A DNA stretch of 64,000 nucleotides. Origin: an uncultured Acidimicrobiia bacterium. Lineage in GTDB: Bacteria > Acidobacteriota > Terriglobia > Versatilivoradales > Versatilivoraceae. Made by a program: the position numbers and the translations under genes. The notes under the pieces are model-generated. The model saw nothing but the letters and a program-made list of their open reading frames with translations, was not told the origin of the DNA and did not search any database. The first letter of the stretch is position 1, and the number at the start of each line of letters is the position of its first letter. Shown here in pieces: positions 9,086 to 39,576 of this stretch. Location: positions 274,571-338,570 of the forward strand of contig CAVVYL010000065.1 of the NCBI GenBank assembly GCA_963752385.1, in the 5' to 3' direction.

Positions 9086-9088
9086 GGA

Positions 9089-10203: not shown

Positions 10204-10458
10204 TCACGATCGGGGCCGTTCCAGCTGAAAGATGGTCAGCGCAGACGGCTCCGGGCAGACGTAGAAGCAGATGCCACAGCCAGTGCAGCCATGCCCCATG
10301 TACTGAACCGGAACATAACCCTGTCTGTTCAACCTTTCCCGAAGCGTCAGACAGTGAACGGGACAGGTGATGATGCAGAGCCCGCACCCCTTGCATTCTT
10401 CGGGATCAATTTCAATCCAACCTCGCTCCGTGTTTCCCAATGCTGGTTTCGCTGCCAT
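10204..10458 (-). CDS. 4Fe-4S ferredoxin (delta subunit of oxidoreductase)
   Basis: 84 aa with two CxxCxxCxxxCP motifs ([12 protein letters not shown] and [12 protein letters not shown]), sited directly upstream of the alpha subunit. Confidence 0.8.
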
Positions 10459-10464
10459 GTTCCA

Positions 10465-14920: not shown

Positions 14921-15302
14921 TCTGCCCTAACCGGTCTTTTCATAGATCGAAATGAAGACAATCAGGGCTAACGTCATCTTTTCCGAATGAGCCGTCGCTG
15001 AGCGCTCAAATGGCTTTGCCCGGGATGTCGCACTGCTGCCCCGCCTGCGACATTTAACCCAGTCTCGTTCGGCAACGCGCTCTCTGGTGGCCCTCACCAT
15101 CCTGTTTCCGGGCGGACGCTCCTGCGTCTGAGGGCGGAACCAACCTCCGCCCTCCGAGAAACCTAGACTTTGGCTCGACCCAGCGGTCCTGCAGAGTCCA
15201 AGCCGACCCCCTGCCTTCCTTCTTGGCAATCGATTTGCACTTTCACAATGGGTGAGCCCGTAAGCGTGCGCGACTCGTCAGCAACTCAAGGCAGGAGGAT
15301 CT

Positions 15303-18305: not shown

Positions 18306-18494
18306 CCAGCCACCAGTTGAGTGAGTGTGGAAAGGAAGGCTTATCCGTCGACCCGATTATACATGCAAAATGTTTGGAGCAGATCCCTGATCAGAACTAG
18401 CAAGGCAACTTCCACCAAAAGGCCATGTCAAAAACTTTGGCGGCTTGGAAAGCCAGCTTTTCTTTAGCAGAGCAGCTGCTTGTGATTCCGGTTG

Positions 18495-18510
18495 TGTGAC
18501 CTAAGTCATA
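18495..18510 (+). promoter_or_regulatory. Crp/Fnr-type operator TGTGA-N6-TCATA upstream of radical SAM gene
   Basis: gtTGTGTGACctaaGTCATAgcaaa lies about 95 bp upstream of the ATG at 18607. It is near-identical to the site at 22023-22038. Confidence 0.55.
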
Positions 18511-18606
18511 GCAAACCTACCCCGCTTCGCTTTAGGCTTGATCCATGTGGTTGCAGAGGTTCTGTGGTCCGCCACTCCATTATTGACTTAGTTTGGGAAG
18601 AAGTGA

Positions 18607-19698
18607 ATGCAACGTCCGAATTTTCAGCAGAATCCTTACATAGCAATTTGGGAAACCACACGCGCTTGCGAGTTGGCTTGCCTGCATTGTCGCGCGGAAG
18701 CCATCAAGTGGCGTCACCCGCTGGAACTCACCACCCAGGAAAGCACTCAGCTCATTGACCAGGTCAGCCAGTGCGGCAACCCGTTGTTTGTGCTGACCGG
18801 CGGGGATCCGATGAAGCGCTACGACCTCTTTGAGTTGATCCCTTACGCAGTTCAAAAAGGCCGACGCGTCGCCATGACACCCAGCGGCACACCGCTGATG
18901 ACTCGCCAAGTGGTGACCGAACTCAAGAAGGTGGGGCTGGCTCGTCTAGCGGTGAGCCTCGATGGCTCGAAGGCAGACATTCACGACCATTTCCGGCAGG
19001 TGTCCGGCTCTTATGGCTGGACAATGAACTGTATCGACTACGCGCACGAAGCGAACTTGCCGGTGCAGATCAATACCACGGTGTCCCGGCATAATCTGGG
19101 CGACCTGCAGGCCGTGGCCGATCTGTTGCTCACCAAGAACGTCACGCTGTGGAGCGTCTTCTTTCTAGTGCCAACGGGACGGGGGAAACCCGAAGATGAA
19201 GTGAGCGCCAATGATTACGAGCGCGTGTTTCACTTTCTGGTCGAACTCTGTCTGAAGGCCCCATTTGACATCAAAACCACGGCAGCTCCACACTACCGGC
19301 GCGTGCTGCTGCAGCGGTTGCAACAACTGCCGGCGCACCAGCGTTCGCAGAAGCTGTTGCAGGCTGGACCCATTGGCCGTGCCGCCGGAGTCAACGAAGG
19401 CCGGGGCCTTCTCTTCGTCTCACATACCGGCGACATTTTTCCCAGCGGGTTTCTGCCAATTTCTGCCGGCAATGTGCGCACGAACTCATTAATTGACGTT
19501 TACCGCAATTCGCCTCTCTTCCGAGATCTCCGCGACACATCAAAACTAAAAGGCAAGTGCGGCGACTGCGAGTTTAAGGAAATTTGCAGCGGTTCACGGG
19601 CACGCGCCTATGCCATGACTGGCGACTACCTTGCCGAGGAGCCCTTCTGCAGCTATGTTCCCAGAAAAGTACGGGCACGGCATGTAGTGCCCATATAG
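18607..19698 (+). CDS. radical SAM / SPASM-domain protein of unknown function
   Basis: Radical SAM cluster motif CELACLHC (C-x3-C-x2-C) in IAIWETTRACELACLHCRA. The C-terminal Cys-rich auxiliary-cluster region is KGKCGDCEFKEICSGSRARAY. Confidence 0.8.
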   Translation: MQRPNFQQNPYIAIWETTRACELACLHCRAEAIKWRHPLELTTQESTQLIDQVSQCGNPLFVLTGGDPMKRYDLFELIPYAVQKGRRVAMTPSGTPLMTRQVVTELKKVGLARLAVSLDGSKADIHDHFRQVSGSYGWTMNCIDYAHEANLPVQINTTVSRHNLGDLQAVADLLLTKNVTLWSVFFLVPTGRGKPEDEVSANDYERVFHFLVELCLKAPFDIKTTAAPHYRRVLLQRLQQLPAHQRSQKLLQAGPIGRAAGVNEGRGLLFVSHTGDIFPSGFLPISAGNVRTNSLIDVYRNSPLFRDLRDTSKLKGKCGDCEFKEICSGSRARAYAMTGDYLAEEPFCSYVPRKVRARHVVPI

Positions 19699-19752
19699 TT
19701 GGACCGCGGCGCATGCCGGGTCCAATACCCTTGTTCATAAGGAGATTGAATC

Positions 19753-20479
19753 ATGACCATCCATATCACAAAGACGGTGCGAGAGGTTGCCGTTGAGCTG
19801 CCTGAAGCAACCCGAGTTTTCGAGAAGTTAGGGATTGACTACTGTTGTGGCGGTGGCAAGGCTCTGCAGGAAGCTTGTCTCGCGGCGGGCGTACCCACAG
19901 AAAAAGTCGTCGCTCTTTTGGAAGACGCTGCCCGTCTTGCGTGCAAATTCGATCAAGGCCCGTGACTGGAATTCAGCACCATTGGCTGACTTGGTAGCTT
20001 ACATCGTCACCCGGCACCATGAATTCACGCGAGAAGAACTGGTCCGGTTAAGCGAACTATTGGCGAAAGTCTGCTCGGTGCATGGAGAAAATCATCCAGA
20101 GCTCTGCAGACTCCACACCATCTTTCAGGAGCTGAAAGCCGAACTGATTGGACACATGTCCAAAGAAGAGCAAATCCTCTTTCCTTACATCGAAAATCTG
20201 GAGGCGGCCGTCGCACGCGGGGAGCCGGCGCCGACGCCAGTCTTCGGCACCGTGCGCTATCCTGTCCGGATGATGATACAAGAGCACGATGACGCCGGGC
20301 AGGCTCTCCGCGGCCTCAGGGAGGCGAGCTCGAATTACCAGGTTCCATCAGATGGCTGCGTCAGTTTCCGCACCTTGTATCGGGCATTGGAAGAGTTTGA
20401 GCAGGACCTGCATGAGCATATCCACTTGGAGAACAACATTCTGTTTCCGCGCGCGACTGAGCTGGAGGCGAGTGCCTGA
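19753..20479 (+). CDS. RIC/YtfE-like iron-sulfur cluster repair di-iron protein, copy 1 (ScdA_N domain + hemerythrin domain; frame change near 19955-19965)
   Basis: 19753-19965 encodes ...FEKLGIDYCCGGGKALQEACLAAGVPTEKVVALLEDAARLACKFDQGP*. The +1 frame continues ARDWNSAPLADLVAYIVTRHHEF...EEQILFPYIE...HIHLENNILFP, which are hemerythrin HHE motifs. The junction matches E. coli YtfE ...EKDWRSAPLAEIID. Confidence 0.7.
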
Positions 20480-20973
20480 TGAATACAGGTCGGCGTCACG
20501 AAAGTTTGATCCCCCTTTCTCGCGAGCATCACTACGGTCTGCTGGTCTGTCTGCGAATCCATCGCGGCATTGTGAAGCACCATACTGATCCGGATTGGCT
20601 CAGCGAACGTGCCGAGAGGGTGATCCGCTTCGAGAGTGATCTGAAAACCCACTTTGAAGCGGAAGAGAAGATCGTATTTCCGGCCATGCTCGAAATTGAG
20701 GAAGCCGGCACGGTCATCGAGCAGTTGATCAAGGAGCACCGGGCCGTCACCAGGCTTGTCGAGCGGCTGAGGCGATCTAGGGGTTTGCAGCTGGCTCCAC
20801 TGCTCCGGGAGTTTGCGGATCTCCTCGAAGCTCATATCCGGCAGGAAGAACGTGTCCTGTTTCCCTGTTACGAGCGGAACATCTCGGCCAAAGAAGCGGG
20901 GCAGGTGAAGATTCAGATTCTGCAAGTCATTGGTAGTGCAATGAAACCTAAGAACCCTGTCCTTTTGGAATGA
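20479..20973 (+). CDS. hemerythrin HHE cation-binding domain protein
   Basis: 164 aa with paired H/E motifs (REHHYGL...HFEAEEKIVFP...EHR...HIRQEERVLFP). Its start overlaps the stop of the preceding gene (ATGA). Confidence 0.7.
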   Translation: MNTGRRHESLIPLSREHHYGLLVCLRIHRGIVKHHTDPDWLSERAERVIRFESDLKTHFEAEEKIVFPAMLEIEEAGTVIEQLIKEHRAVTRLVERLRRSRGLQLAPLLREFADLLEAHIRQEERVLFPCYERNISAKEAGQVKIQILQVIGSAMKPKNPVLLE

Positions 20974-21147
20974 GAAATGAAGCCTCAATCGAGCTGCAGA
21001 GCAACCGCCGGCTTCCTGTGGATGTGAATGGAGCCCAGGCTCAGATGTACATCGTCAATCTGGGCGTCGCGTCTTTGTTCAGCACTCACGCCTCGCCCTG
21101 TCTTTCGAGAGCATTTTCCCAAGGTGGTCTTGCTCGCCAGCCTTATA

Positions 21148-21861
21148 ATGCGGGCTATGCACATCAAACTAGAAAAGGCAGACCGCATCAACACATTGAG
21201 AAAAGTGTCTTTCTTCTCTCATCTAGAGGATGAGGCGCTGCAGTCCTTGGCAGAAACCGCCGTCCCGAAGGGTTGGAGCAAAGGCGAAATCATTTTCAGT
21301 GAAGGGAGTCCTTGTCCCGGCCTGTTTGTCGTGCATTCAGGAGCGGTAAAGATCTTCAAGACTTCGTTGAAGGGCCGCGAACAGGTCCTCACGATCGAAA
21401 CGACGGGGCGAGCTATCGCCGAATTGGCCGTCCTCGATGAGGGCCCGTATCCGGCTTCGGCGATGGCGATGGAGGAAGCAACCCTGCTGCTGATCCTGAA
21501 ACAGGATTTCCAGAATCTTTGTCGCCACCATCCGGAGATTGGGTTCAGGATCATCAAGGCCCTGGCGGGCCGTTTCCGCAAGCTGGTAGGACTGGTCGAG
21601 GCCTTGGCCTTTCTGGAGGTGGGACAGCGGCTGGCGAAGTTTCTGCTTGAAAAAGCCAGCCAGCCGGAGAAGCACGGCGGGCATGTAGAGTTCACGCTGG
21701 ACCAAAGCCACCAGGAATTGGCCGCGCAGATTGGGACCGTCCGGGAACTCGTGTCCCGTTCCTTCGGACGCTTTCAAGAGCAGGAGATCCTTTCCGTCAA
21801 GAACCGCACCATCACCATTCTGAATATGGAGCGTCTCAAAGAAGAAGCCCACGCGGAGTAA
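21148..21861 (+). CDS. Crp/Fnr-family transcriptional regulator (cNMP-binding + C-terminal HTH)
   Basis: cNMP-binding beta-roll (GEIIFSEGSPCPGLFVVHSGAVKIF...) and a C-terminal HTH (QSHQELAAQIGTVRELVSRSF). There is no N-terminal Cys cluster of the FNR type. Confidence 0.8.
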   Translation: MRAMHIKLEKADRINTLRKVSFFSHLEDEALQSLAETAVPKGWSKGEIIFSEGSPCPGLFVVHSGAVKIFKTSLKGREQVLTIETTGRAIAELAVLDEGPYPASAMAMEEATLLLILKQDFQNLCRHHPEIGFRIIKALAGRFRKLVGLVEALAFLEVGQRLAKFLLEKASQPEKHGGHVEFTLDQSHQELAAQIGTVRELVSRSFGRFQEQEILSVKNRTITILNMERLKEEAHAE

Positions 21862-22022
21862 CTGCTCGATCCGCTTTTTATACCTGCGAAGTTCAAGGAC
21901 TCACCGAACCGCGACAACAAGTGCCACCGTTTGCGAACTCTGGGCCCTCAACCTAGAATCTTCCCATCGCGAGTAAGGATCAACCATCATCCCATTTTCG
22001 AAACCTCCCAATAAGTCAGAGT

Positions 22023-22038
22023 TGTGACTTAGGTCATA
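22023..22038 (+). promoter_or_regulatory. Crp/Fnr-type operator TGTGA-N6-TCATA upstream of NnrS-like gene
   Basis: gtTGTGACttagGTCATAgcaag lies about 75 bp upstream of the ATG at 22116. It shares TGTGAC.TA.GTCATAGCAA with the 18495 site. Confidence 0.55.
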
Positions 22039-22115
22039 GCAAGCGCTGAGTAGCGGCTTTACTATCGAACTCAGGAGCAGAGCGGGATCAGCCAAACCTG
22101 ATCGGAGGGTCATCC

Positions 22116-23948
22116 ATGAAGATAGCCACCAATTGCACAATTCGTGAGCTGCTGGGACGTTTTCCACGGACGCGCTCTGTCTTTGATCGCTACGGACTGA
22201 AGGGCTGCGGCGGGATTGAGGGCCCCACAGAGTCACTAGCCTTCTTCGCTCGGGCCCACGGTGTCGACTTAGATCATCTTTTGCAGGAATTGCAGCAGGC
22301 AGCTGCAAGCCCGGAAGTGGCGCCCGTCCAGGAGGTAGTCAGCCCCGCTGATACCATCTACCGCCGTTTCTTCAAAGCCGGCATTGCGATTACACTCACG
22401 GCAGGAGCGGCGTGGGGTGCGTTGCTACTCATCACCATCGGGTTAAAAGGAAGCTTCACGGCTATCTCGATCTTTGACATCAATGCTCACGGTCATGCCC
22501 AGATCTTTGGATGGGTTGGCCTTTTTGTGATGGGCTTTGCCTACCAGGCTTTCCCGCGCTTCAAACATACATCGCTCTGGAATCCCGGCTTAGCGGTATT
22601 GACGTTTTATCTGATGCTGGGAGGATTGATCTTGCGAGTCATTGGCGAACCGCTCCATCGGTTTGCTCCCCTGTTTTGGATCGGGCTTCTAGGCACGGTA
22701 TTGGAGCTGGCGGCAATCGGCTTGTTCATTCTGATCATTACTAAAACGTTCCGTCGAAGTCAGAAACCGCTCGCTGCTTACGACTACTACATCGGCGCGG
22801 CATTCTTCTGGTTCCTTGCACAAGCCGTCCTGGACCTCTTTCATCTCTACATGACGACCACAGCCCCCACCAGGACACTACTGCTGCAACAAGTGGCTAC
22901 CTGGCAGGCGCCGTTGCGGGACTTGCAGATTCACGGCTTTGCCTTGACGTTAATCCTGGGCGTGAGCCAGCGATTCCTGCACGGCATGTATGGCTTCCCG
23001 GAAATCCCCCGCCTCCGCGCGTTGGGTGTGCTGGTGCCGTTGACAGCCGCTGTAGCCGGTGAAGCCCTTTTCTTTGTGCTTTTTCGAAAGACTGGACAGC
23101 ACCTCTATGCGGGGTTCATGTACGCCTGCATGATGGTGATTGCTGTTTCCGTGGTCGTCCTGACACGCAGTTGGTGGATCCATTTCTGGGGCCGTCCGGC
23201 AGAAGTGCCTGAAGAAATCACAGCCGACCGGGCAGACCGTAGCTTTAAGTTCATTCAAGCGGCCTATGCCTGGTTGCTCGTCTCGCTTGCCATGCTGCTC
23301 TTCGTGCCTGTCTACAACCGGCTCACGGGGCAAGCCTTCTCTCATGCCTTTTATGGGGCCACGCGCCACGCGATTACAGTCGGCTTCATTAGCATGATGA
23401 TTCTCGGGGTAGCCGCCAAAGTGGTCCCGGTGCTGAACGGAGTGGATGCTCGCACCCTGTCACGCCTCTGGCCGCCTTTCATTTTGATAAACGCCGGTTG
23501 CTTCTTGAGAGTCAGCACACAGGTTTTGACTGACCTCGTGCCTGGAGCTTTCTCTGTGATTGGCCTGAGTGGCCTGCTCGAAGTCACTGGCATTGCTGTT
23601 TGGGGAATCGGATTGTACCGAGTGATGAACTCGACGAATGAGCGCCTCCAAACAGTGGTGGCTCGACCTGTTTCGGTCGGTTCCGACGACAAGCCCGGAC
23701 CGGTTGTTGACGCCGCACCAGAATTGTTGGCGGTGTTTGCTCAGTTTGGCTTTGCCTCGCTCCAAAACCCGCTTTTGCGCCGCACGCTGGGGCGGCAGAT
23801 CACGATTCGGCAGGCCTGCCGGATGCACAATGCCAATGAGCCAGCACTGCTGGAGGCACTCAACGCAGCGTTGAGTCGCGGCAAAGAGACCCAAACGAGC
23901 CGTTTCCCCATACTCAATGCCTCAGGCATTCCAGCACCGAGGCGGTGA
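22116..23948 (+). CDS. NnrS-family heme-copper membrane protein with N- and C-terminal DUF1858/ScdA_N-like domains
   Basis: N-terminal MKIATNCTIRELLGRFPRTRSVFDRYGLKGCGG resembles the ScdA_N/DUF1858 fold. The central 12-TM region has HGHAQIFGWVGLFVMGF and other conserved His, which are NnrS hallmarks. The C-terminal APELLAVFAQFGFASLQNPLLRRTLGRQITIRQAC is again DUF1858-like. Confidence 0.7.
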   Translation: MKIATNCTIRELLGRFPRTRSVFDRYGLKGCGGIEGPTESLAFFARAHGVDLDHLLQELQQAAASPEVAPVQEVVSPADTIYRRFFKAGIAITLTAGAAWGALLLITIGLKGSFTAISIFDINAHGHAQIFGWVGLFVMGFAYQAFPRFKHTSLWNPGLAVLTFYLMLGGLILRVIGEPLHRFAPLFWIGLLGTVLELAAIGLFILIITKTFRRSQKPLAAYDYYIGAAFFWFLAQAVLDLFHLYMTTTAPTRTLLLQQVATWQAPLRDLQIHGFALTLILGVSQRFLHGMYGFPEIPRLRALGVLVPLTAAVAGEALFFVLFRKTGQHLYAGFMYACMMVIAVSVVVLTRSWWIHFWGRPAEVPEEITADRADRSFKFIQAAYAWLLVSLAMLLFVPVYNRLTGQAFSHAFYGATRHAITVGFISMMILGVAAKVVPVLNGVDARTLSRLWPPFILINAGCFLRVSTQVLTDLVPGAFSVIGLSGLLEVTGIAVWGIGLYRVMNSTNERLQTVVARPVSVGSDDKPGPVVDAAPELLAVFAQFGFASLQNPLLRRTLGRQITIRQACRMHNANEPALLEALNAALSRGKETQTSRFPILNASGIPAPRR

Positions 23949-24029
23949 TTGCTCTTGTGACGGCCAGTGCCGATTGTTTTCTGCCAAAGCAACTGACCGC
24001 TGGCTGAAATCATCGCCTCCGCGCGCTTC

Positions 24030-24731
24030 CTAAGGCAGCGGCTTTGCAATGATGCGAAAGCCCAGGTAGGCCGCGCTGACTTCTGGCTGGAATGTTTCCC
24101 GGTAGGGCAAATAAAGGATCGCGATGCTGGCGCTGTACCACGAACCGCCGCGCACCACGCGCCTTCCGCCTGCATTTTCACGATTGCGCCCATCGTTGTC
24201 CAAATAGGGATAGTCGCGGCTGAAGGTTCGGTCCAGGGTTGCGGTCCACTCGGCCACGTTGCCCGACATGTGATAGAGTCCGTACCGATTCCCGGTGAAA
24301 CGCAGGCGTGTTTCCCGGAGCCCGACAACGGTGACCTCGGCAGAGGGATTCTTTTTCCAGTTATAGAAATCGACCTCCCCATCGCTCACCAGGCTGCTGA
24401 GCCCGTAATCAAAACTGTCCGGCCCGCGTGCGCCTTTTTCCCACTCGCCCTCTGTCGGCAGTGCAAACAACCACCGGCCTTTTCCCAGCGTTCTTGTCAG
24501 CCAGCGGCAGTAAGCGCTGGCCTCGTACCAGTTGACACCGGTCACCGGCTGATCGCTCTGTCCGAAGCGCGCGTACTCGGCATCCCCCGGTCTGAGTTGG
24601 GCTGAAGCCTCAGTGGGCTTTGACGATCTCCACTGCCTTCCGGCTTCAGACCAGTTGGCGTCGTTAGGGTAACCATCCTGGTTCCGCAGAAAGGCCCGAA
24701 ACTCGGCATTGCTCACTTCAAACCGGTTCAT
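24030..24731 (-). CDS. formylglycine-generating-enzyme (FGE-sulfatase/SUMF1) domain protein, possibly N-terminally truncated
   Basis: NRFEVSNAEFRAFL, GVNWYEASAYCRWL, LPTEGEWEKGARG, GNVAEWT, RGGSWYS and YLGFRI are all FGE-sulfatase domain motifs. Confidence 0.7.
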   Translation of the reverse strand: MNRFEVSNAEFRAFLRNQDGYPNDANWSEAGRQWRSSKPTEASAQLRPGDAEYARFGQSDQPVTGVNWYEASAYCRWLTRTLGKGRWLFALPTEGEWEKGARGPDSFDYGLSSLVSDGEVDFYNWKKNPSAEVTVVGLRETRLRFTGNRYGLYHMSGNVAEWTATLDRTFSRDYPYLDNDGRNRENAGGRRVVRGGSWYSASIAILYLPYRETFQPEVSAAYLGFRIIAKPLP

Positions 24732-25149
24732 GAAGTTAGGAAAGTTGCCAGCTCGTGGAGGGTCATGTCGTCTCTGACAGACAGTACCCTAGGATTCATG
24801 ACATCCTTTGCCGTGAGATTGCTCATAGAAGCCCCCTTTGCAGAATGGAAATCGCCGGCAGATACACAGTGGTTATGGACATACGAAACCGGCCCACCTT
24901 CTGCAAAGCACTTCTGCTTCCAGAGTCAAGTCGCGAAGCTTCGTCGAGATCCCTGCCCCAAGCGCCTCATGGCATAAGGGCTTGCCGGATGACTGCCTAG
25001 ATGTCGGTTAGAGCAGGCAACCTATCTGCGCGCTCTTCAGCCTGGCCCTGATTGCCAGCGGATTCATCTTGCTTCCATGGCCACTCTAGAGATTAGTGCT
25101 AGCGTCTCACGCAACTCCTCGCCGGAGTCCCACTCTGCACCTGGCGTTT

Positions 25150-25392
25150 CCACCCACTCGCGTCATATCCCCCATTTTTCCAGCCTGCTGGAATTACCTC
25201 AACCTCCAGTCTTTTGAACAAGTGTAGCTTGGCAAGCAAGGTGCCTTATCCAAGGAAGGAAGAGGCGATTGGTCTTACGCGCGACCTCATTGTTCAGGAT
25301 TCGGCGTTCCCATTCGACTTTGCACCAAGGTAGACACTGCATGAAAACGGCGCAGGGTCACAGATCGATGGAAATGAGGTAGCAGTAATCAT
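25150..25392 (+). repeat. direct repeat copy 1 (promoter + degraded PFOR-leader)
   Basis: About 70-75% identical to 25893-26120. It shares ccacccRctcgcgtcatatccccc and tttggcaaRcaaggtgcc. The leader is degraded here to MKTAQGHRSMEMR*. Confidence 0.6.
25230..25244 (+). promoter_or_regulatory. candidate sigma-54 promoter (TGGCA-N7-TGC, GG/GC spacing 10)
   Basis: cTTGGCAagcaaggTGCc compared with the consensus TGGCAC-N5-TTGC. It is conserved in both repeat copies. Confidence 0.45.
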
Positions 25393-25892
25393 GAAGTTGC
25401 GTAGGGGGTAGAGAGATGACAGGAAAAAGAAGCGGAGGAGTCGCGGCCCCCACGAAGTCGATTTGGAACCTGTGTGCCCAAAGCTATTGGATCAGAGGAG
25501 TGCCTCCTCTCGCGAGGTCCACGAACACCACGCTGGACCAACACTCGGCGAGCTCAGGCAGCCAGGCAACAGCGCTCGCCAAAGGACCCCAATTCGTCGC
25601 CGTCGCGACTCGAACTAATTCTGAGTCAGCGCTTGAGCACCGACAGAGAATTGTCGTGTGGTCGCTCATCGCATTGCTATGGATCCTTTCGGCGCTGGCT
25701 GTCATGATACTCTTGGAGAAGGCGGCATCTTGAGATCCTGACGCGGCTGAAATCATGCAATTGTCCTCCCGGATTGAAACAGTTGATGGCTTTCCCAGGA
25801 AGTTGATCTCGCCACGCATCACTTTGCACTCGGACAATCAGACGGGCGATCGGCGTATCCTTTCTTTAGGGCGCTGCTTCTGCTCCTGCCTT

Positions 25893-26120
25893 TCCCACCC
25901 GCTCGCGTCATATCCCCCACCTGCGAATCTGTTGGAATGACCTGAAGCACCAATCTTTTCAACAAATACAATTTGGCAAACAAGGTGCCTCTTTGAGGGT
26001 CAGGATGAAGTGATGGGGCCTTTTACGCGCGGTCTTCGGCATTCCCATTCGACTTTGGCGTGACGGGAGGTAATTCATGGAACGACGCAGGGTCACGATC
26101 GACGGAAACGAAGCAGCAGC
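25893..26120 (+). repeat. direct repeat copy 2 (promoter + intact PFOR-like leader start)
   Basis: See copy 1. The repeat period is about 743 bp. Confidence 0.6.
25974..25988 (+). promoter_or_regulatory. candidate sigma-54 promoter (TGGCA-N7-TGC)
   Basis: tTTGGCAaacaaggTGCc, about 250 bp upstream of the DHOD-like gene. Confidence 0.45.
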
Positions 26121-26235
26121 ATCTGTCGCCCATCGAACAAACGAAGTCATTGCCATCTATCCTATTACAGCCCCGCTGAACCGCCAGCTTAGGGTCGTCA
26201 GAGCGCAGCGCGGGGTGTGCGAAAAGAAAAGGTGA
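26077..26235 (+). other. 52-codon ORF encoding the N-terminal 29 residues of a PFOR/NifJ-type pyruvate:ferredoxin oxidoreductase followed by unrelated sequence; ends 5 nt before the next ATG
   Basis: MERRRVTIDGNEAAASVAHRTNEVIAIYPIT matches the PFOR N-terminus (M..TxDGN.AAA.VAY..SEVAAIYPITPSS). It then diverges ([21 protein letters not shown]). The stop TGA is at 26233-26235 and the downstream ATG at 26241. Confidence 0.6.
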
Positions 26236-26240
26236 AGTCC

Positions 26241-27233
26241 ATGGACCTGACAACGACTTACCTGGGACTCAAGCTGAGAACGCCGCTGGTCCCATCAGCC
26301 TGTGGTCCGCTCTCCAACAGTCTTGGCAAGATCAGAGGGCTTGAGGATGCGGGTGCATCGGCTATCGTGATGTACTCGTTATTTGAAGAGGAGCTTCTTC
26401 ACGAGGCTCAAAAACTTGACCATTACTTGACTTATGGATCCTACAGCTACGCGGAAGCCTTGAGCTATTTTCCCGAGCCCAAAGACTACGAGCTGGATCC
26501 TGATCGCTATCTGAAACACCTCTACAACGCCAAGCGAGCCGTCGGAGTTCCTGTAATCGGCAGCCTCAATGGAGTTTCCACCGGTGGCTGGGTGAAGTTT
26601 GCCAAGGAGATTGAACAGACGGGAGCTGATGCGCTGGAACTGAATATCTATTACGTTCCCACCGACCTCGACCTCCCTGGCATTGAAGTCGAGCAGATGT
26701 ACGTCAATGTCCTGGAAGACGTGAAGCGCACAGTCAAAATTCCGGTAGCCATCAAACTGGGACCCTTTTTCAGCAACATGGCTCACATGGCAAAGCGCTT
26801 GGTCAACGCTGGGGCGGATGGCTTGGTGTTGTTCAACCGGTTCTACCAGCCGGACATCGATCTGAAGCAATTGGAAGTGGTCCCGAATGTTCTGTTGAGT
26901 ACACCGCAGGCGATGCGCCTCCCCTTGCGCTGGATTGCGATTCTCTACGGGCGGCTTCAAGTGAGTCTGGCGGCCACCGGCGGCATTCATAACTCTGAAG
27001 ATGTCGTCAAGATGCTGATGGCCGGGGCGGACGTCACCATGCTGTGCTCAGCTCTTTTGAAAAATGGCATCGGTTGGATAAGGCAGGTAGAGAAGGATGT
27101 CGTTCGATGGATGGAAGAGCACGAGTACACGTCTGTCGAGCAGATGAAAGGAAGCATGAGCCAGAAATCCTGTCCACACCCGTCTGCCTTTGAACGCGCG
27201 AACTACATGAAGGCACTGAAGAGTTATGTGTGA
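26241..27233 (+). CDS. dihydroorotate dehydrogenase-like (DHO_dh family TIM-barrel flavoprotein)
   Basis: [28 protein letters not shown]...[14 protein letters not shown] matches the dihydroorotate dehydrogenase-like protein family. The C-terminal region has [21 protein letters not shown]. Confidence 0.7.
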
Positions 27234-27391
27234 AGGATTCCTGAAGCTGCGATTCTGCCCAGAGGCACTGGGCTGATCGGCAATCTTTCCCAACCGTGAT
27301 CGCTACGGAGGGGCGAGGCTGCCGGAATGTGATCTTCGGGCGCTGAGACCCTTCGCACTAGATCGATTCGGGACGCCGGAAAGGAGACACC

Positions 27392-28145
27392 ATGAAGGTT
27401 GCTACCACAAGCAAGACTGTCCGAGAGTTCGCTCTCAAGCTCCCAGGAGCTACATGGGTCTTTGAGAAGTTAGGAATTGACTGTTGCCGTGGGAGCGGCA
27501 GGGAGCGCCGGGAGGCCTGACCAGAATGGGGGTGTTGCTGAAGAGAAAGTCGTGGCGCAGGAGGCCAGCGAAGCTGCGACTTGTCCGGAAGGCGAGCGAG
27601 ATTGGAGCACAGCTCCGCTTTCGGCTCTGACGAGCTACATTGTAACCAAACACCACAAATTCACTCGCGAAGAGCTCCCAAGACTCATCCAATTGCATGT
27701 CAAGGTGTGTTCGGTCGATGGCCAGCATCATCCGGAGTTGGTACCCATTCACTCGATTCTCCATGAGCTGCAGCAGGAACTGACGAGTCAGATGCTGAAA
27801 GAAGAGCAGATTCTTTTCCCCTACATTGAGCAGCTGGAAGAGGCGGCTGGTCGCGGGAAGCCCGTTCCCACGCCGTTCCCTTGTGGAACCTTACGGAACC
27901 CGATTGAGTCGATGATGCAGGAACACGAACAAACCGAACAGGCACTGCGTCGCCTGCGTGAGATCAGCTCCAACTATGCCGTTCCGGCGGACGCCAGCAT
28001 CATCTTGCGCACGCTCTATGAGGCGCTGGAATACTTCGAGAAGGACCTTCATCAGCACATCCATCTTGAGAACGACATCGTATTCCCAAGGGCCGCGGAA
28101 CTGGAGGGCCTGACCCGGACAAGCAGCAACCAAAGAGAACAGTAA
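27392..28145 (+). CDS. RIC/YtfE-like di-iron protein, copy 2 (ScdA_N + hemerythrin; frame change near 27505-27520)
   Basis: 27392-27520 encodes MKVATTSKTVREFALKLPGATWVFEKLGIDCCRGSGRERREA*. The +1 frame reads ...GVAEEKVVAQEASEAATCPEGERDWSTAPLSALTSYIVTKHHKF...EEQILFPYIE...HIHLENDIVFP. Confidence 0.7.
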
Positions 28146-29930: not shown

Positions 29931-30617
29931 GCAGGCTCCTTTCTGATGAGGAAGCTGCCTTGTCGGAATTTAGGCACAGGTTGCGAAGCGTGGCGCAGGC
30001 AGATCTTCCTAACCTGCCGATATCAGTGCAATCCAAGAGCCAGAGAGTTGATGAGACTCCTTCGCATGTAGCTTGTTCTGCAACAAGGACGGGCATCATC
30101 TTGATCACTTTCTTTTCAGGAAGCTTGGAACTGAGGTGGGTGGATTCACCAATCTCTGCGGAAATTCACCCAGCCAGACTACGGCACCGAAAACTGCTCC
30201 CGAGAATCCAGAAGGATTCAGTCCAGACAAGCAACGCGATCACGCATTAGGCAGATAGGAGGCAATGGAAATGGCACCATGGGCGACCGTCACTTTAGCG
30301 GGTGTCGGTTTGGCTGGCGGGGGACTCGACGGTGATTGTCGGCGCCGGGAGTCATACTGTTCGATCCGATTTTTCAAGGCCTGGCTATTCGCTCATGGCC
30401 GGCGAAGTGGCTTCGCTGCTGTTGTCGCGCATGACGGTGCCCATTCTGTATACCTGCGTGAAAAACGAATGCATCACCATCAGCTGGCAAGTCGAGACCC
30501 TAGATCGTGAGCGACCGGAGATCGCGTTAGGGTGGTTGGTCGGGGAGTCAGCCACGAGCATGGAGCCGACTCAACTTCGCCAACTTCGGCGTTCCGGTCT
30601 TATGAAGTTGCTCTAGT

Positions 30618-30860
30618 CTAGTCGGCCTCAACGTAGAGTGAACGGAAGCAGTGCTCACATTGAATTGTCTTGCCGCCCAAGGCTCGCTGGAGGTGGCCGG
30701 AAGGAATTCTCATATTGCATCCCGAACAATGGCCGGCCCGAATAGGCATGAGTTCCCCTCGATCGTACTGGGTGTGCTCACACGCCGTTCGCGTAAGCAA
30801 AACATTCGATGCGCCTGCCGCCCCGGCGAGCTTCAAAACTCTCTTGGTCATTCGTGCCAT
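30618..30860 (-). CDS. small C4 zinc-ribbon protein (COG1579-C-terminal-like)
   Basis: CSGCNMRIPSG...IQCEHCFRSLY has paired CxxC motifs. It is the last gene of the complex operon. Confidence 0.45.
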   Translation of the reverse strand: MARMTKRVLKLAGAAGASNVLLTRTACEHTQYDRGELMPIRAGHCSGCNMRIPSGHLQRALGGKTIQCEHCFRSLYVEAD

Positions 30861-30929
30861 CCTTTTGTTTCCTTCCTTTCATTCACTAGAAACAGCCGTG
30901 CTTGTCGCCCCTCGCGACCCCTGGCATCT

Positions 30930-31793
30930 TCAACCAGTCTCAGTTCTGAGCTTCTCCTGCAACCGGCCCATAGCTACCAGAATTCCGTACAGTAAGGCCT
31001 GCGGCGGTGGGGGGCAGCCTGGAATATACATATCGACCGGGATCACCTGGTCCACACCCCCCAGTGACGCATAGGTGCAACCAAAGATTCCTCCACTGCA
31101 GCCACAGGCGCCCACAGCCACCACCAAACGCGGCTCTGGTGTGGCGTTGTAGGCCTTCTTGAGTGGGATCTCCATGTTGCGAGTGACCGGACCAGTGACC
31201 AGCAGCATATCCGCATGGCGCGGGGAAGCCACAAATCGGATTCCCAGTCGTTCGGCGTCATAAATGGGGCTGTTGAGGCCCGTGATTTCAACTTCGCAAC
31301 CATTGCAAGAGCCTGCGTCCACTTCGCGAATCTGCAGCGAGCGGCCCAGTACACGGCGGATTCTCTCTCGCAACCGCTCTTTGACCAGCGCTTCCGCCTC
31401 AGAGGTCTGCCGGTCTGTCTGCGCCATCTGGAGGAACTGCTGCTTCCCGCCCGCATCCAGACGGTAGTAGGCCGAGGACACCAGGTGAGAGCGATGTTGG
31501 GCAGCCAGCTCGATTTCTCCCGTGGTGCGGATCGTGCCGTCGGCGGAGGCTTCGGCACAGAGGCCGCAGAAGATGCAACGCCCGTAATCGAGCGTCACCT
31601 TCCGGTTGTCCAGTTTGTCCTCGACGGTGAGTGCGCCTGTGGGACAAACGAGGGCGGCAGGCAGACAATCTGCGGCTTTCTCGAAATCGATCACCGGTCT
31701 ACCGCGCAGGTTGGGGAGAGGCTCCATGGGGCGGGCTGGGTAGTCGGTCGTGACAACGCCTGTCACAAAGGCTCGGTTTAGAATCTTGAACAT
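30930..31793 (-). CDS. fused HycF/HyfH-like 2x[4Fe-4S] ferredoxin + HycG/HyfI/NuoB-like small subunit
   Basis: N-terminal MFKILNRAFVTGVVTTDYPARP...GRCIFCGLCAEAS is HycF-like. The C-terminal GSCNGCEVEI...RFVASPRHADMLLVTGPVT...VAVGACGCSGGIF...YIPGCPPPP holds the NuoB/HycG proximal-cluster cysteines. Confidence 0.8.
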   Translation of the reverse strand: MFKILNRAFVTGVVTTDYPARPMEPLPNLRGRPVIDFEKAADCLPAALVCPTGALTVEDKLDNRKVTLDYGRCIFCGLCAEASADGTIRTTGEIELAAQHRSHLVSSAYYRLDAGGKQQFLQMAQTDRQTSEAEALVKERLRERIRRVLGRSLQIREVDAGSCNGCEVEITGLNSPIYDAERLGIRFVASPRHADMLLVTGPVTRNMEIPLKKAYNATPEPRLVVAVGACGCSGGIFGCTYASLGGVDQVIPVDMYIPGCPPPPQALLYGILVAMGRLQEKLRTETG

Positions 31794-31853
31794 AAGGTTG
31801 GCAGCTCCAGGCAAGAATTTTTCGAGCTAAGCGCTGGTGATCAATCTTCAGAA

Positions 31854-32663
31854 TCATGTGCTGTGTCTGAAGTGAAAGCACAAATGGAAACCCAGAGCGG
31901 GGTTTCTGCGCCCGCCCGGTCGAGGGCGGAAAGCCTCGGTGCTTGCAAGTCTTCGGGCCGTGGAAATTCTCCGAAGGGAAATTAAATCTCCCGGACTTGG
32001 GTTCTTGATCGATAGCTCGAGAAATCCGATGTCCTGGAATTCCTGCACGACCCGCTCGTAACCGCCAGGCAGGTCTCCTCCCATCCCGTGAAACGTCACC
32101 ACGCGCGTGCCCGAGGGAGCTTGCGCCAGCCGATCCTGCGTCATCTTAATGTAGCGGTCATATAGAGAAGGACTCAACTCCACGCGTTCGTCGAGCTTCT
32201 TGTCAGGGTCCAGGTTTTCGTAAAACGGATTGTAAAAGTAGAAGGCGTTGTATCGGCTCCAGTCCAGGTCTCCGGCATTGGCACACAAAAAGCGCACGCG
32301 GGAAATGGCGTACCTATGAGCAAAGCTCCGAGAGAGTTCCGCCAGATGTGGTCTCTGTTCCACACCTGTAAAATTTCCCTGGGTAGCCAGTGCGCCGACC
32401 AGGCAGAATTTGCCTGGGCCTGACCCCACAGCCAGCACCTGAGTTTCGGGCCCGCTGACCAACAACTGGGCGGCGCGGCGAGCCACGTGGACCGGAGTCC
32501 AATGCATGATGGAGAATCGGCGCCAGCACAGGGGGAGAATGCGGTCGAACTGCGCATTCCATACGTGAGCACCGGTCCGCACACGGTCAAAGAGTCGCTG
32601 TATTTCGCATGAGTGTTCTTTCTCGATATCTAACAGTGCCTGTCTGAGAGGAGAAGCAGTCAC
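31854..32663 (-). CDS. class I SAM-dependent methyltransferase-like protein embedded in complex operon
   Basis: Motif I-like QVLAVGSGPGKFCLVGA. It sits between the large-subunit and small-subunit genes, and its function is unknown. Confidence 0.45.
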   Translation of the reverse strand: MTASPLRQALLDIEKEHSCEIQRLFDRVRTGAHVWNAQFDRILPLCWRRFSIMHWTPVHVARRAAQLLVSGPETQVLAVGSGPGKFCLVGALATQGNFTGVEQRPHLAELSRSFAHRYAISRVRFLCANAGDLDWSRYNAFYFYNPFYENLDPDKKLDERVELSPSLYDRYIKMTQDRLAQAPSGTRVVTFHGMGGDLPGGYERVVQEFQDIGFLELSIKNPSPGDLISLRRISTARRLASTEAFRPRPGGRRNPALGFHLCFHFRHST

Positions 32664-32718
32664 TGAATTGCTCTCGCAGTCGCTTTGGGTTGATTGTCGA
32701 TGGCGCTGTGCCAGTGTT

Positions 32719-34379
32719 TCATCGGTCTGTTCCTGAGTAAGAGAGATTGAAGCTTTTGTTGATGACAGGAAAATCCGGAATGATGTTGCCCTGCACGGCT
32801 TCGGGCAGGGCCGGCCAATTGTTCAATGAAGGATCTTTGATCTTGCAGCGAGCCAAACTGCCGTTTTTCCCGGTGAGCACCCAGTGAAGGATTTCGCCGC
32901 GCCAGCCTTCCACGTAACCGAGAGCGCAGCTTTCCGGCGGGATGGGTGGTAGTGCAGTACTCACCGGGCCCGGGACAGCAGGGCCAATGCTTCCAGCGCG
33001 ATGCGGATTGAATCCAGGGCCTCCCCCATACGCACCCGCATCCGGTCAAAGACATCCCCTTTGGAATGGAGGACCACCTTCGGAGGAATTTCGTCGTACG
33101 CCGCGTAGGGAAAGTCCCGGCGAACGTCGAGGTCCACTCCGGACGCGCGGGCGGCAACCCCCACGACGCCCAGGTCCACAGCGGTTTTGTGCGGGAGAAT
33201 GCCGGTCGTCTCCAGCCGGTCGCGAGTAGAGGCGGACGAGAGAATCAGATCCACTAGCGATTCAAACTCCCTTTTGAGGAAGCGTAGCACGCCGGCGGCC
33301 CTCTGAATCTGCTGGGGATCCCAGTCGCGCCGCAAGCCGCCATACACATTCATGCTTCGCAAGAGGCGGTTGCCGGTCAATTCGGCGTTTAAGCACAACA
33401 GTTGTTCCTTCAGGCGCATGGCGTGTGCGTTAGCCACCATGAATCCCACATCCGTGGCAATGGCGCCCACGTCAGCAATGTGGTTGTACAGCCTTTCCAG
33501 TTCGAGCAGCACGGTTCGCATCAACCGGGCCCGACGCGGCACTTCGACGCGCGCCAGGCTCTCGATCGCCTGGCAGAAAGCGGTGGAGTGACTGAAGCTG
33601 GAATCTCCTGAAATGCTTTCGGCAAGGAAGACCGCGTGCGCGAGCGGCTTGTGCTCGAAGAGTTTCTCGGTGGCCTTGTGGGTGTAAAACAACCGGATTT
33701 GCAGATACAGCACCGGCTCGCCGGCAACACTAAAGCGAAAATGACCGGGCTCAATGATGCCGGCATGGATCGGGCCCACGGGCACCTGAAATACGCCTTC
33801 GCCCTCCACTGGGCGGAACAGGTGACGGGGACCTGGCAAGGGCAAGGGCCTGGAGAACAGGTCGAAGTCCTTGCGCAGTGGATGGACCCTGTCCGGGAAA
33901 TCGTCATGGAGCGCCACACGGCGCGGATTGGGGTGGCCCACGGCCGTCAGCCCAAACCAGTCCTGGATTTCCCGCTCCTGCCAGTTGACCGCAGGAATCA
34001 CAGGTGTCAGCGACGGGAATTCAGGATCGGTTGCGGGAACCGGCGTTCGAACGAGAATGAAGCCGCCAGCCCGGTCGCAAGCAAACGTGTACTGGAGATA
34101 GAAGACTTCCTCCTCTTTGCGCCGATCGATGCCAAACACCATGGCCAACCGTATCTTGCGAAGTTTGTAGAGGTGGGCCGCGATGGCAGCAATTGAGTCT
34201 CGCCCGGTTTCCAGATAGACCTCGTTGGGACGCCTACTATAAAGCCGCTGGATCTTGCCGCCAAACGCCATCTGCAGGTCGGCGACAATGGAACCTACCC
34301 CGTTTGCCTCACTCATAAAAACGCTCCCAAATGGAATTGCTTCTCCGCGCCGGATTTCCTGCAGTAATGCCGCGGTCAT
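32719..34379 (-). CDS. NuoC-NuoD/HycE-like fused large subunit lacking Ni-Fe cysteine ligands (frame change near 32960-32985)
   Basis: NuoC part: AMVFGIDRRKEEEVFYLQYTFA...NWQEREIQDWFGL. NuoD/HycE part: VPVGPIHAGIIEPGHFRF. The N-terminal RxCGxC is replaced by ESISGDSSFSHSTA. The C-terminal DPCxSCTDR is replaced by FNLSYSGTDR (in the 32719-32964 ORF, shifted frame). Its ATG overlaps the upstream stop (ATGA at 34376-34379). Confidence 0.8.
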
Positions 34380-35859
34380 CGCGCGCCTCCAACGATCTGG
34401 CCTGCCTGTTGGATCAAGCGCAATAAGGGTGAAGGCAGCCAGAAACCGAAGAGCAGCGTCAACGCAGCAATCAGAAGCATCGGCAGAAGCCGCCACCAGG
34501 ACTCGGCGGTCCGATTCATTCCAATCCGAGGGGCTCCCAGCGCCAGGTGCCCCACGTGGTAAAGAAATCCGGCAAAGATTGTGACCACGCATCCGACAAA
34601 AATGCTGGCTATCCAGAGGCTGCGGCCCTGGACCGAAGCGCTGAGCACCGTCAACTCGCTCTGGAACAGGCCGGCGGGCGGAGTGCCGGTCACCGCCAGG
34701 GTCCCGGCCAGAAACAATACTGCTGTCACTGGCATCAGATGGATCACGCGCCGCCTACTTTGCGGAACATGGCGGTTCCAAACTGCTGCTGGACATTGCC
34801 CGCGCAGAAGAAGAGCAACGGCTTGGTGATGGCGTGATAAAACATGTGCAGCAGCGCGCCAAACGGACCCAGGCTTCCGCCAACCCCGAAGCCAACCAGC
34901 ATGATCCCGGTATGATCAATACTGGAGTAAGCCAGGAGGCGGCGGAAGTTGGTCTGCACCAGGATGAACGGCGTCGCAATCAGCAAGGAACCCAGTCCAA
35001 ACCAAAGCAGCAGGCCGCTGGAAAACTCCGGACCGAGACACCTCGAGGCAAGGATGTGAAAACGCAGGATCCCGTAAAGCGCGCAGTTGAGCACCGCCGC
35101 AGCCAGAATCGCCGCCGAGGGAGCAGGCGCTTCGCTGTAGGAGTCTGGTTTCCAGGTATGCATCGGAGCAATACCGGCTTTGGTTCCATACCCCATGAGA
35201 ATGAAGAGGAAAGCCAGGCGCAAGGCCTTGGGATTGAGCGACGACGCGGCCGAGATAAGCCGAGTCCAGTTCAGCCCTTCGATTGATTCCGTCCCGACGA
35301 CATGGCTGGCGGCGTAATAGGTCAGCAACGTCCCAAACAGCGCCATCGAGATCCCCATGCTGCCGATGATGATGTACTTCCAGGCCGCTTCCAGCGAGGT
35401 CTTCTGGTTGTAGAAGGCAATCAAAAGCACCGAGGCCAGCGTGCTGCCTTCGATGGCCACCCACATAATTCCCAGGTTGTTGGCCAAGGCGACCAGAAAC
35501 AGGGCGAAGACGAAAAGCGGAGTCAGGATGTAGTACTCCTTGAGTCTCCCCAGGGTAATGCTTCCCTTTTCCAAATCCGTCCGGAAATAACCCACTGCGT
35601 AGATGGCACAGACGAAAGACACGAAAGCCGTGAGCACAACCACCAGAGCGCTGAGCGCGTCCGCATACAGAAATCCGTCAAACGCGCTGACTGATTGGAA
35701 CCGTGCCACGTTTTGGACGAGTATCACAGCCAGGGCGAGGTTAATGGCCGCCGAAATGAGGCTGACCCGTTCCATCCACCGGCGCGAACGCAACAACCCG
35801 CAAGCAGCAGCCTCCACCAGTGGCGCCAACAGGAGCAAAACAAGACTCATTCGGATCAA
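34376..35859 (-). CDS. NuoN/NuoM/HyfF-like antiporter-type membrane subunit (frame change near 34745)
   Basis: GIAPMHTWKPDSYSEAPAPSAAILAAAVLNCALYGILRF is the complex-I subunit 2/4/5 family motif. The C-terminal MPVTAVLFLAGTLAVTGTPPAGLF continues in the 34376-34747 ORF. Confidence 0.75.
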
Positions 35860-36521: not shown

Positions 36522-36535
36522 ACGGAACGCCTTTC

Positions 36536-39522: not shown

Positions 39523-39576
39523 TCGGGAGCAACTCTCCTTCAGAGCAATGTGGCAGTCGAAACAGGCAGCCGACGG

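Follow-up and report, generated by a model that had tools for sequence, protein, structure and literature searches.

The window analysed here is a 64,000-nucleotide (nt) stretch of acidobacterial DNA, whose numbering is used throughout, and it contains two paralogous promoter-leader modules placed before two different genes. On our reading, to which we give a probability of about 0.72, module 2 would be the original promoter of a widely conserved operon made up of nifJ (PFOR) and a dihydroorotate dehydrogenase-like (DHOD-like) gene, and module 1 an old partial duplicate of it that now serves a lineage-specific gene for a small membrane protein, probably under the same control. In a recent ancestor shared with the relative L001, a deletion of about 3.45 kb would have joined nifJ codon 31 out of frame to the last 7 codons, leaving the native promoter at the head of a junk open reading frame (ORF) and an orphaned DHOD-like gene. 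The features that bear on this are as follows, with L-numbers as labels of comparison loci or contigs from relatives and other genomes.

25134-25395, plus strand: module 1 (repeat copy 1), holding promoter and leader for the small-protein gene, homologous to 25879-26130
25341-25382, plus strand: degenerate nifJ start, a 13-codon ORF in the leader of the small gene that aligns with nifJ codons 1-17 with a 1-nt insertion
25416-25733, plus strand: gene for a small membrane protein of 105 amino acids, predicted to have a disordered N-terminal part and one C-terminal transmembrane helix
25879-26130, plus strand: module 2 (repeat copy 2), native promoter, 5′ untranslated region (5′ UTR) and beginning of nifJ; homologous sequence precedes intact nifJ in L003, L006, L008, L010, L148 and L142
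26077-26169, plus strand: nifJ remnant, codons 1-31
26170-26192, plus strand: nifJ remnant, ~7 terminal codons with the ancestral TAG (26190-26192), out of frame, aligning with the nifJ 3′ end of L002 (...cagcccagctgaaccgccagcTTAG) and L003
26077-26235, plus strand: 52-codon ORF, an accident of the out-of-frame deletion, not conserved in L001 or L100
26193-26240, plus strand: native nifJ-DHOD spacer with the DHOD Shine-Dalgarno sequence (AAGGTGA, 26229-26235), the same as behind intact nifJ in L003 (9947-10000) and in L002
26241-27233, plus strand: DHOD-like gene (330 amino acids, NF005741), the conserved downstream partner of nifJ

The closest comparison sequence, L001, is an independent metagenome contig from a different sample that is 98.8% identical to the window in nucleotides over the repeat and DHOD region and 98.1% over 3.6 kb in all. 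The DHOD-like gene is 95% identical in L002, where the genes downstream of it are the same as in the window, 88% in L003, the closest relative with long flanks, and 83% in L145; the closest match to it among GTDB representatives is at 80%. By the homologues of its DHOD-like protein, the window belongs to Terriglobia (Acidobacteriota). The flanks of L100 and L118 are 94-97% identical to the window.

Homology between the two modules is readily detected. A BLASTN search of 25100-25420 against the whole window gave 25879-26119 as its sole match (71% identity over 257 columns including 21 gap positions, E=4e-29), and comparison of the region with itself in a repeat search resolved the similarity into four collinear blocks of 62, 41, 23 and 16 nt that are 79, 88, 96 and 94% identical and lie 744, 745, 735 and 735 nt apart. 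An 18-mer within the repeat, CTCGCGTCATATCCCCCA, occurs exactly twice in the window against 0.02 expected, and both copies share TGGCAA(G/A)CAAGGTGC. The initial annotation had described two direct repeats of about 250 bp here; the identity is above background and the coordinates were correct to within about 15 nt. All module copies, those of the relatives included, share ATTTCCACCC..GT(C/G)ATATCCCCCAC, a TTTTCAAC box and TTGGCAA(G/A)C..G(G/A)TGCC, and each module would thus comprise an upstream motif, the box, a -24/-12 element (TTGGCAA(G/A)C..GGTGCC) and a leader made from the nifJ 5′ UTR and about 17 codons.

The deletion can be traced with similar precision. In tblastn with the intact PFOR of L003 (1190 amino acids, 1863 bits on TIGR02176), positions 26077-26169 match residues 1-31 with 29 of the 31 identical (93.5%), and they conform to the PFOR N-terminal domain I pattern ..TxDGNxAxAxxAYxxxEVxAIYPITP... 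Past codon 31 (...IYPIT, ending at 26169) the window reads gccccgctgaaccgccagcTTAG, which is the end of nifJ as found in L002 (cagcccagctgaaccgccagcttag) and L003; this 3′ match consists of the last 23 nt including the ancestral TAG. Homology between L002 and the window begins at 26168, and comparison with the intact-operon relatives L003, L148 and L002 places the junction at 26168-26170, with 2-3 nt of microhomology and about 3.45 kb of nifJ gone. L001 has the identical junction. L002, with its DHOD-like gene 95% identical, keeps the last 81 nifJ codons in frame, which indicates that the deletion is recent. Full-length NifJ (about 1170-1200 amino acids, with POR_N, PFOR_II, POR, EKR, two [4Fe-4S] and thiamine pyrophosphate-binding domains) was not found in the 64-kb window, only these remnants, and nifJ at this locus is best described as a remnant rather than a gene. 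Both the PFOR N-terminus in copy 2 and the loss of most of a nifJ-like gene, as initially proposed, are therefore borne out by the intact orthologues.

The order of the two events follows from relatives that have both modules. Module 1 precedes the small-protein gene in every contig that shows the upstream region of this gene (L001, L100, L118, L143, L141, L142, L146/147 and L148). In L148 the order is module 1, small gene, module 2, intact nifJ and DHOD-like gene, and in L142 module 2 leads into the nifJ start ATGGAACGACGCAAG at the contig end. Since both modules coexist with an intact nifJ in the one and a nifJ start in the other, the duplication is older than the deletion, and the comparison indicates that promoter, 5′ UTR and the first ~17 nifJ codons were duplicated before nifJ was lost and before these lineages split, at a synonymous divergence of about 0.4. 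The initial annotation had envisaged a promoter-leader cassette that was duplicated and captured after the nifJ deletion; a large deletion did take nearly all of nifJ, but the order was the wrong way round.

A tandem duplication of the whole 745-nt unit is ruled out, as 25396-25878 is unlike the DHOD 5′ region or nifJ in blastn, in tblastx and in Smith-Waterman comparison with shuffled sequences (z≤2.4). Concerted evolution of the copies is not apparent from the identity matrix, in which every pair is ~60-79% identical and neither genome nor type clearly groups the sequences. One short tract, 26035-26057 (block D3), is 96% identical between the copies of the window and differs in module 2 of L100, which suggests an occasional gene-conversion event between the copies.

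The small gene follows module 1. Its ATG lies 7 nt behind a Shine-Dalgarno sequence (AGGGGG, AGGAGG in relatives), and a profile search collected about 40 homologue clusters with proteins of 63-108 amino acids, 38 of them 88-97 amino acids long. Direct homologues are 47-67% identical to the protein of the window, and a C-terminal segment, LEQRQRVIVWxLIALLWILF, is nearly invariant across the family. AlphaFold predicts a single helix for residues 71-104 with a confidence (pLDDT) of >90 and low-confidence, disordered structure elsewhere. The protein has no Pfam or NCBIfam match. The length difference in L100/L118 is an in-frame deletion of 3 nt, and the ratio of non-synonymous to synonymous substitution rates (dN/dS) is 0.3-0.7. 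The conservation points to a real, previously unannotated family of small membrane proteins. An origin of this gene de novo from nifJ sequence is without support, with no similarity to nifJ in blastn, tblastx or Smith-Waterman comparison with shuffles, and a 105-amino-acid ORF in L005 is unrelated, its equal length being a coincidence. Copy 1 had been taken for a repeat decayed to a 13-codon ORF; this ORF exists, but the module is not a relic, as it fronts a conserved gene that had been overlooked. Homology, deletion junction, conservation of the small gene and order of events can thus be regarded as established from sequence comparison.

Both modules contain an element with the geometry of a sigma-54 promoter:

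25230-25245, plus strand: putative -24/-12 element P1, TGGCAAGCAAGGTGCC, GG-N10-GC, 8/11 consensus positions
25974-25989, plus strand: putative -24/-12 element P2, TGGCAAACAAGGTGCC, GG-N10-GC, 8/11 consensus positions, 103 nt upstream of the nifJ ATG

Sigma-54 (RpoN) promoters are activated from an upstream site by response-regulator enhancer-binding proteins of the NtrC/AtoC class. Candidates were scored at 11 positions against TGGCAC-N5-TTGCW with GG and GC exactly 10 nt apart, and the pattern matches are TGGCAAGCAAGGTGC at 25230 and TGGCAAACAAGGTGC at 25974. The element is conserved in all copies of both modules, TTGGCAAGC..G(G/A)TGC being kept in every module-1 orthologue, and a GTCATATCCCCCAC box is present in the P1 and P2 promoter regions. 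An equivalent element lies upstream of nifJ at -99 in L003, -110 in L006, -108 in L008 and -119 in L010. Fifteen genomes of Bacteroidota and Kryptoniota have a near-perfect TGGCA(T/C)-N5-TTGCA at -111 to -137 of nifJ. In a promoter survey of 60 genomes, a GG-N10-GC element scoring at least 8/11 was found at -85 to -145 of the nifJ ATG in 18, against 0.0225 expected per genome (P=8e-16), in a set that is phylogenetically non-independent and in which at least two distant groups contribute to the count. Near-consensus (T/C)GGCA(T/C)-N5-TTGCA sites were noted at a fixed distance, ~110-140 nt upstream of nifJ, in the Bacteroidota and Kryptoniota loci L019, L029-L034, L042, L043, L047, L049, L051, L054, L055, L064 and L065. 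These data suggest sigma-54 control of PFOR in the two phyla; a literature search found no paper on such control of PFOR.

A scan of 24600-27600 with an E. coli-type sigma-70 consensus gave no sigma-70-like promoter, and the only terminator-like sites in that interval are on the minus strand. The -24/-12 geometry that the initial annotation had pointed out is thus present in both copies and has comparative support in 18 of the 60 genomes; dependence of P1 and P2 on sigma-54 is itself a likely interpretation of this conservation. P2 would now transcribe the junk 52-codon ORF, the native spacer and the DHOD-like gene, the last being translated from its own Shine-Dalgarno sequence.

Features further upstream and downstream of the modules offer a candidate activator for these promoters:

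25146-25174, plus strand: candidate activator-binding site of module 1, GTTTCCACCCAC and GTCATATCCCCCA, ~19 nt apart
25890-25919, plus strand: candidate activator-binding site of module 2 by motif match, CTTTCCCACCCGC and GTCATATCCCCCA
30027-30042, minus strand: second sigma-54-type promoter, TGGCTCTTGGATTGCA, 10/11 consensus positions, upstream of the Usp and CoA-binding genes
42885-45576, plus strand: response-regulator sigma-54 activator (42885-44267) and PAS histidine kinase (44296-45576), by Pfam and NCBIfam matches

Of 16 nifJ-type promoters examined, 14 have the second box of the candidate binding site at a fixed -64 to -68 relative to the -24 element; in L141 and in L142 module 1 the box is degenerate. 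An extended motif, GT[CG]A[AT]..C[AC]CCCAC[CG]T, has just two occurrences in the window, at 25907 (plus strand) and 30149 (minus strand), against 0.035 expected for a pattern that was defined post hoc. The second of these sites belongs to GGTGAA(A)TCC(N)CCCAC(C/G)TCAG (30134-30149, minus strand), which lies ~108 nt upstream of the Usp element and resembles the -65 box of the nifJ-type promoters. The true Usp start is the ATG at 29929, with the Shine-Dalgarno sequence AAGGAG and the promoter ~100 nt upstream, and the element TGG(C/T)TC(T/A)TGGATTGCA is shared by the window with L002, L003, L144 and L145, in which it stands at -104 to -113 relative to the Usp start.

The window encodes two Sigma54_activat proteins. 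The one at 42885-44267 is 85-86% identical in amino acids to a protein whose gene, paired with that of a PAS histidine kinase, lies 2.5-6 kb downstream of the DHOD-like gene, divergent from Usp, in L003, L144 and L145, and with its PAS kinase, presumably sensing low oxygen or the redox state, it is the likely activator. The Usp and CoA-binding genes, the small-protein gene and the nifJ-DHOD operon may accordingly form one regulon driven by this two-component system, with low oxygen or redox probably as its signal.

The arrangement is like that of NtrC/AtoC-type systems in its GG-N10-GC spacing, in a conserved motif, the candidate activator site, that precedes the -24 element by 65-110 nt, and in a candidate receiver-AAA+-HTH_8 activator with a PAS kinase that is conserved beside the locus. 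It is unlike them in that the -12 box is GTGC, the motif upstream has the look of a direct repeat where a dyad is usual, and the activator is parted from the promoters by a 12.7-kb hydrogenase-like cluster.

This block, 30174-42874, separates Usp and activator genes that adjoin each other in L003, L144 and L145. It includes a hydrogenase small-subunit-like gene (Oxidored_q6 and Fer4), a fused Complex1_30kDa/49kDa gene and three Proton_antipo_M genes, and resembles an energy-converting (group 4) hydrogenase-like cluster, which might act as a ferredoxin sink. At least the first 5 kb of the block are also present in L002, up to ~35300 where the L002 contig ends.

Several observations weigh against our reading. 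The loose GG-N10-GC pattern is no more frequent in the window than chance would give (4 occurrences against 3.6 expected), the element of the window reaches only 8/11 consensus positions with GTGC instead of TTGC at -12, and it is quasi-palindromic, its minus strand (AGGCACCTTGTTTGCC) scoring 9/11. No rpoN was seen in the window, the activator is 15.6 kb from the promoters in this genome, and the upstream-motif pattern, as said, was drawn up after the fact. The small gene evolves fast, with dN/dS up to 0.7, so that constraint on it is weak. Finally, sigma-54 dependence, activator, signal, transcription start site and read-through are all things that we infer.

The near-symmetry of the element raises the possibility that TTGGCA-N6-GTGCC is instead a palindromic operator for a dimeric factor, such as the Crp/Fnr-type regulator encoded nearby at 21028-21861, and that transcription starts from a sigma-70 or extracytoplasmic function (ECF)-type promoter that was not recognised. 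The GGCA..TGCC symmetry, a minus-strand score as good as or better than that of the plus strand and the restriction of the promoter scan to an E. coli-type sigma-70 consensus would all be compatible with this. The palindrome is not conserved, however: the elements of L003 (TGGCGAAGCAGGTGCA) and of Bacteroidota (TGGCATTCTAATTGCA) fit GG-N10-GC only in the nifJ direction, and since the minus-strand symmetry is absent from both, the conserved orientation is towards nifJ. The distance from element to ATG is fixed across phyla, the element is unlike the FNR/CRP consensus TTGAT-N4-ATCAA, and the closest relatives with these modules lack the segment in which the Crp/Fnr gene lies. We consider an operator of this kind unlikely, and prefer to read P1 and P2 as sigma-54-type promoters.

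A second alternative concerns the module-1 leader, in which the 5′ UTR and the ~17 degenerate codons could have been kept by selection as a cis-regulatory element shared with the nifJ mRNA, for instance a site for a small RNA or a protein, or an upstream ORF. GGGTCACGATCGATGGAAACGAAGCA can still be made out in the module-1 copies of L141 and L146, although the small proteins of these two are just 47% and 67% identical (aligned part) to that of the window, and in L146 the leader forms a 22-codon upstream ORF that ends 5 nt before the small-gene ATG. RNAalifold on six sequences also returned one constant feature, a possible ACCUC:GAGGU pairing with the Shine-Dalgarno sequence of the small gene in six of six.

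Against such selection, the 13-codon frame is not conserved (it stops after 2 codons in L141, L142 and L148 and is frameshifted in the window), lineage-specific deletions of 18 nt in L143 and ~33 nt in L142 fall inside the leader, and the consensus fold is weak (-9.1 kcal/mol, with a covariation term of -0.19). An Rfam 15 scan of 24000-27500 at E≤1 gave no match. The non-coding identity of ~70% is what neutral evolution predicts at a synonymous divergence of ~0.4, and the high identity of block D3 could come from a short conversion tract between copies. Selection on the leader is therefore quite doubtful in our view, and equally speculative is the wider proposal that the duplicated 5′ UTR and codons act as a post-transcriptional control element, that small protein and PFOR/DHOD are co-controlled at the transcription and the mRNA level, and that the small protein is a dedicated accessory of a PFOR/DHOD-like redox module in Terriglobia. 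The leader is probably a by-product of the duplication that brought the promoter.

The 52-codon ORF behind P2, which encodes MERRRVTIDGNEAAASVAHRTNEVIAIYPIT..., had been interpreted as a functional leader translationally coupled to the DHOD-like gene, within the model of a cassette captured after the nifJ deletion. Its TGA (26233-26235) does lie 5 nt before the DHOD ATG (26241), as described, and inside the DHOD Shine-Dalgarno sequence, so that termination-reinitiation is physically possible; the nifJ Shine-Dalgarno sequence (GGGAGG) and ATG are also intact in the window, and a short ORF that ends a few nt before the next start codon is what leader peptides and coupled upstream ORFs look like. 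Neither reading frame nor stop position is conserved among close relatives, however. At 98.8% nucleotide identity, L001 has a 1-nt insertion (tatAcct) that shortens the ORF to 38 codons and ends it at the ancestral TAG, 48 nt before the DHOD ATG, and in L100 the nifJ ATG is mutated to AGG.

The tail of the ORF is out-of-frame nifJ followed by intergenic sequence, as it reads through the position of the ancestral TAG and the native spacer into the DHOD Shine-Dalgarno sequence, and it has neither the regulatory codon content nor the alternative hairpins of leader peptides. The spacer and Shine-Dalgarno sequence, aaaggtgaagtccATG, follow the nifJ end in the window just as they do behind intact nifJ, which leaves the DHOD-like gene with its ancestral translation signal. 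As the duplication also predates the deletion, the leader model is very improbable; with its frame lost in L001 and its start codon lost in L100, the ORF is debris of the deletion.

An assembly artefact, with the contig collapsed or made chimeric at the two repeats, is an extremely unlikely reason for the absence of nifJ: direct repeats 744 nt apart can mislead short-read assemblers, and a 1-nt frameshift in the gene just downstream could be a sequencing error, but the deletion endpoints (nifJ codon 31 and codon ~1184) lie outside the repeats, the same junction recurs in L001 from another sample, and L100/L118 and L145 have nifJ deletions of their own.

What the deletion orphaned is not a gene of pyrimidine synthesis. 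The DHOD-like protein matches NCBIfam NF005741 ('dihydroorotate dehydrogenase-like protein') with 487.2 bits (cut-off 303) over residues 1-329, and true PyrD models score far under their cut-offs. Among 80 GTDB genomes from many phyla that encode this protein, ~71 have nifJ, full or truncated by the contig, just upstream of its gene, mostly with a gap of <0.4 kb and at most of ~1.4 kb; of the remainder, 5 have nifJ fragments and 4 no nifJ. In L003, nifJ (6374-9946) and the DHOD-like gene (from 10001) are 54 nt apart and a GltD-like gene is divergent from nifJ. In Synechocystis, nifJ (sll0741), sll0743 and sll0744, annotated as 'dihydroorotate dehydrogenase (fumarate)', form one microoxically induced transcription unit, TU3296 (PMC11368403), and in Propionibacterium PFOR is flanked by GltD-like and DHOD-like genes (PMC7650540).

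The DHOD-like proteins of these systems belong to the same family (NF005741), and the order of nifJ then DHOD is that of the relatives of the window, with their spacer and Shine-Dalgarno sequence. In contrast to those systems, nifJ of the window is cut to 31+7 codons and its DHOD-like gene orphaned, and the Synechocystis unit is controlled by SigE and cyAbrB2, not by sigma-54. The GltD-like partner was not found in the 64-kb window.

The DHOD-like gene has nevertheless been maintained since the deletion. The window and L001, which share it, differ by 8.5 synonymous and 5.5 non-synonymous changes, with about three times as many non-synonymous sites, giving a dN/dS of 0.19; the ratio is 0.09 against L002 and 0.08 against L003. 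These values indicate purifying selection in the lineage of the window after the loss of nifJ. A different outcome is seen in L100/L118, which keep both repeat copies and are without the sequence corresponding to 26121-27217, the rest of the nifJ stub and the entire DHOD-like gene; the junction (L100:2640-2745, in reverse in L118) holds a short inverted piece of nifJ codons ~20-33 that can be read directly from the sequence.

A further deletion is found in L145, where the promoter and nifJ up to codon ~5 are joined to the last ~20 codons (..FYEQLA..PPA*), followed by the DHOD-like gene; another promoter copy stands 1.4 kb upstream, and behind it come nifJ residues 3-18, fused to 251-351, and then the Usp gene (L145:8300-10000). 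L144 and L005 have the DHOD-like gene and no recognisable trace of nifJ. As the deletions differ between window/L001, L145 and L100/L118 and L144 and L005 have no trace, nifJ has been lost repeatedly in this clade.

The locus is in part familiar. As in known gene remnants produced by internal deletion, 5′ and 3′ stubs are left, here with 2-3 nt of microhomology, and as in known partial tandem duplications that move a promoter before another gene, a promoter with a 5′ coding stub precedes another ORF. What sets it apart is the age of the promoter duplicate and its stable association with a small-protein gene specific to the lineage, and also that nifJ was lost in several different ways at one locus in close relatives.

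A fermentative gene set is encoded at 5108-11787 (minus strand), with acetate kinase, 3-hydroxyacyl-CoA dehydrogenase and an acetyl-CoA hydrolase/transferase, and with a two-subunit 2-oxoacid:ferredoxin oxidoreductase (7646-10396) that might take over part of the role of the lost PFOR. Elsewhere in the window, a sigma-54-like match on the plus strand, TGGCAATCGATTTGCA (15224-15239, 10/11), points into the 3′ end of a minus-strand P-type ATPase gene and has no obvious downstream gene.

A 6.4-kb segment upstream of module 1 (18361-24735) is absent from the closest relatives L100, L118 and L143, in which the P-type ATPase gene joins module 1 via a CBS-domain gene. The segment has a radical-SAM/SPASM gene, two hemerythrin/RIC-type genes, the Crp/Fnr regulator, an NnrS-like protein and an FGE-sulfatase gene, and looks like an inserted island for nitric oxide or redox stress. 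At 24735-24907 (minus strand) the first 173 nt of the CBS-domain gene of L001/L143 are left as a stub that ends 3 nt from the FGE start codon, and this stub marks the right-hand breakpoint of the segment. The NnrS-like gene (22116-23948, plus strand) is unusual; in its 610-amino-acid product, an NnrS-like membrane core is combined with a ScdA_N/'prismane-associated redox disulfide' domain at the N-terminus and a DUF1858 at the C-terminus.

Just downstream of the DHOD-like gene, a RIC/ScdA/YtfE-type iron-sulfur repair gene (27392-28145, plus strand) has a 1-nt insertion (cctgAccag, ~27519) relative to L001 and L002, which splits its ScdA_N part (27392-27520) from its hemerythrin part (27477-28145), either as a pseudogene or through a sequencing error. 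The RIC/hemerythrin paralogues at 19835-20479 and 27477-28145 are ~65-67% identical in nucleotides.

Taken as a whole, the case combines ordinary gene decay with a further, probable example of a sigma-54 regulon, and is not a new kind of mechanism or system. For annotation it means that the 52-codon and 13-codon ORFs are debris and the 105-amino-acid ORF a real gene, and that the DHOD-like gene should be seen as the orphaned partner of an operon. With its putative sigma-54 promoter, upstream motif and response-regulator/PAS-kinase pair, the locus provides a concrete candidate for a unit that regulates low-oxygen metabolism in soil Acidobacteriota, which are poorly studied. The pairing of nifJ with a DHOD-like gene is nearly universal across phyla; the window/L001, L145 and L100/L118 lineages are natural nifJ knock-outs, and the contrast between a DHOD-like gene that stays constrained in the lineage of the window and one that has been lost in a sister lineage may help to find out if the DHOD-like protein functions with PFOR alone.

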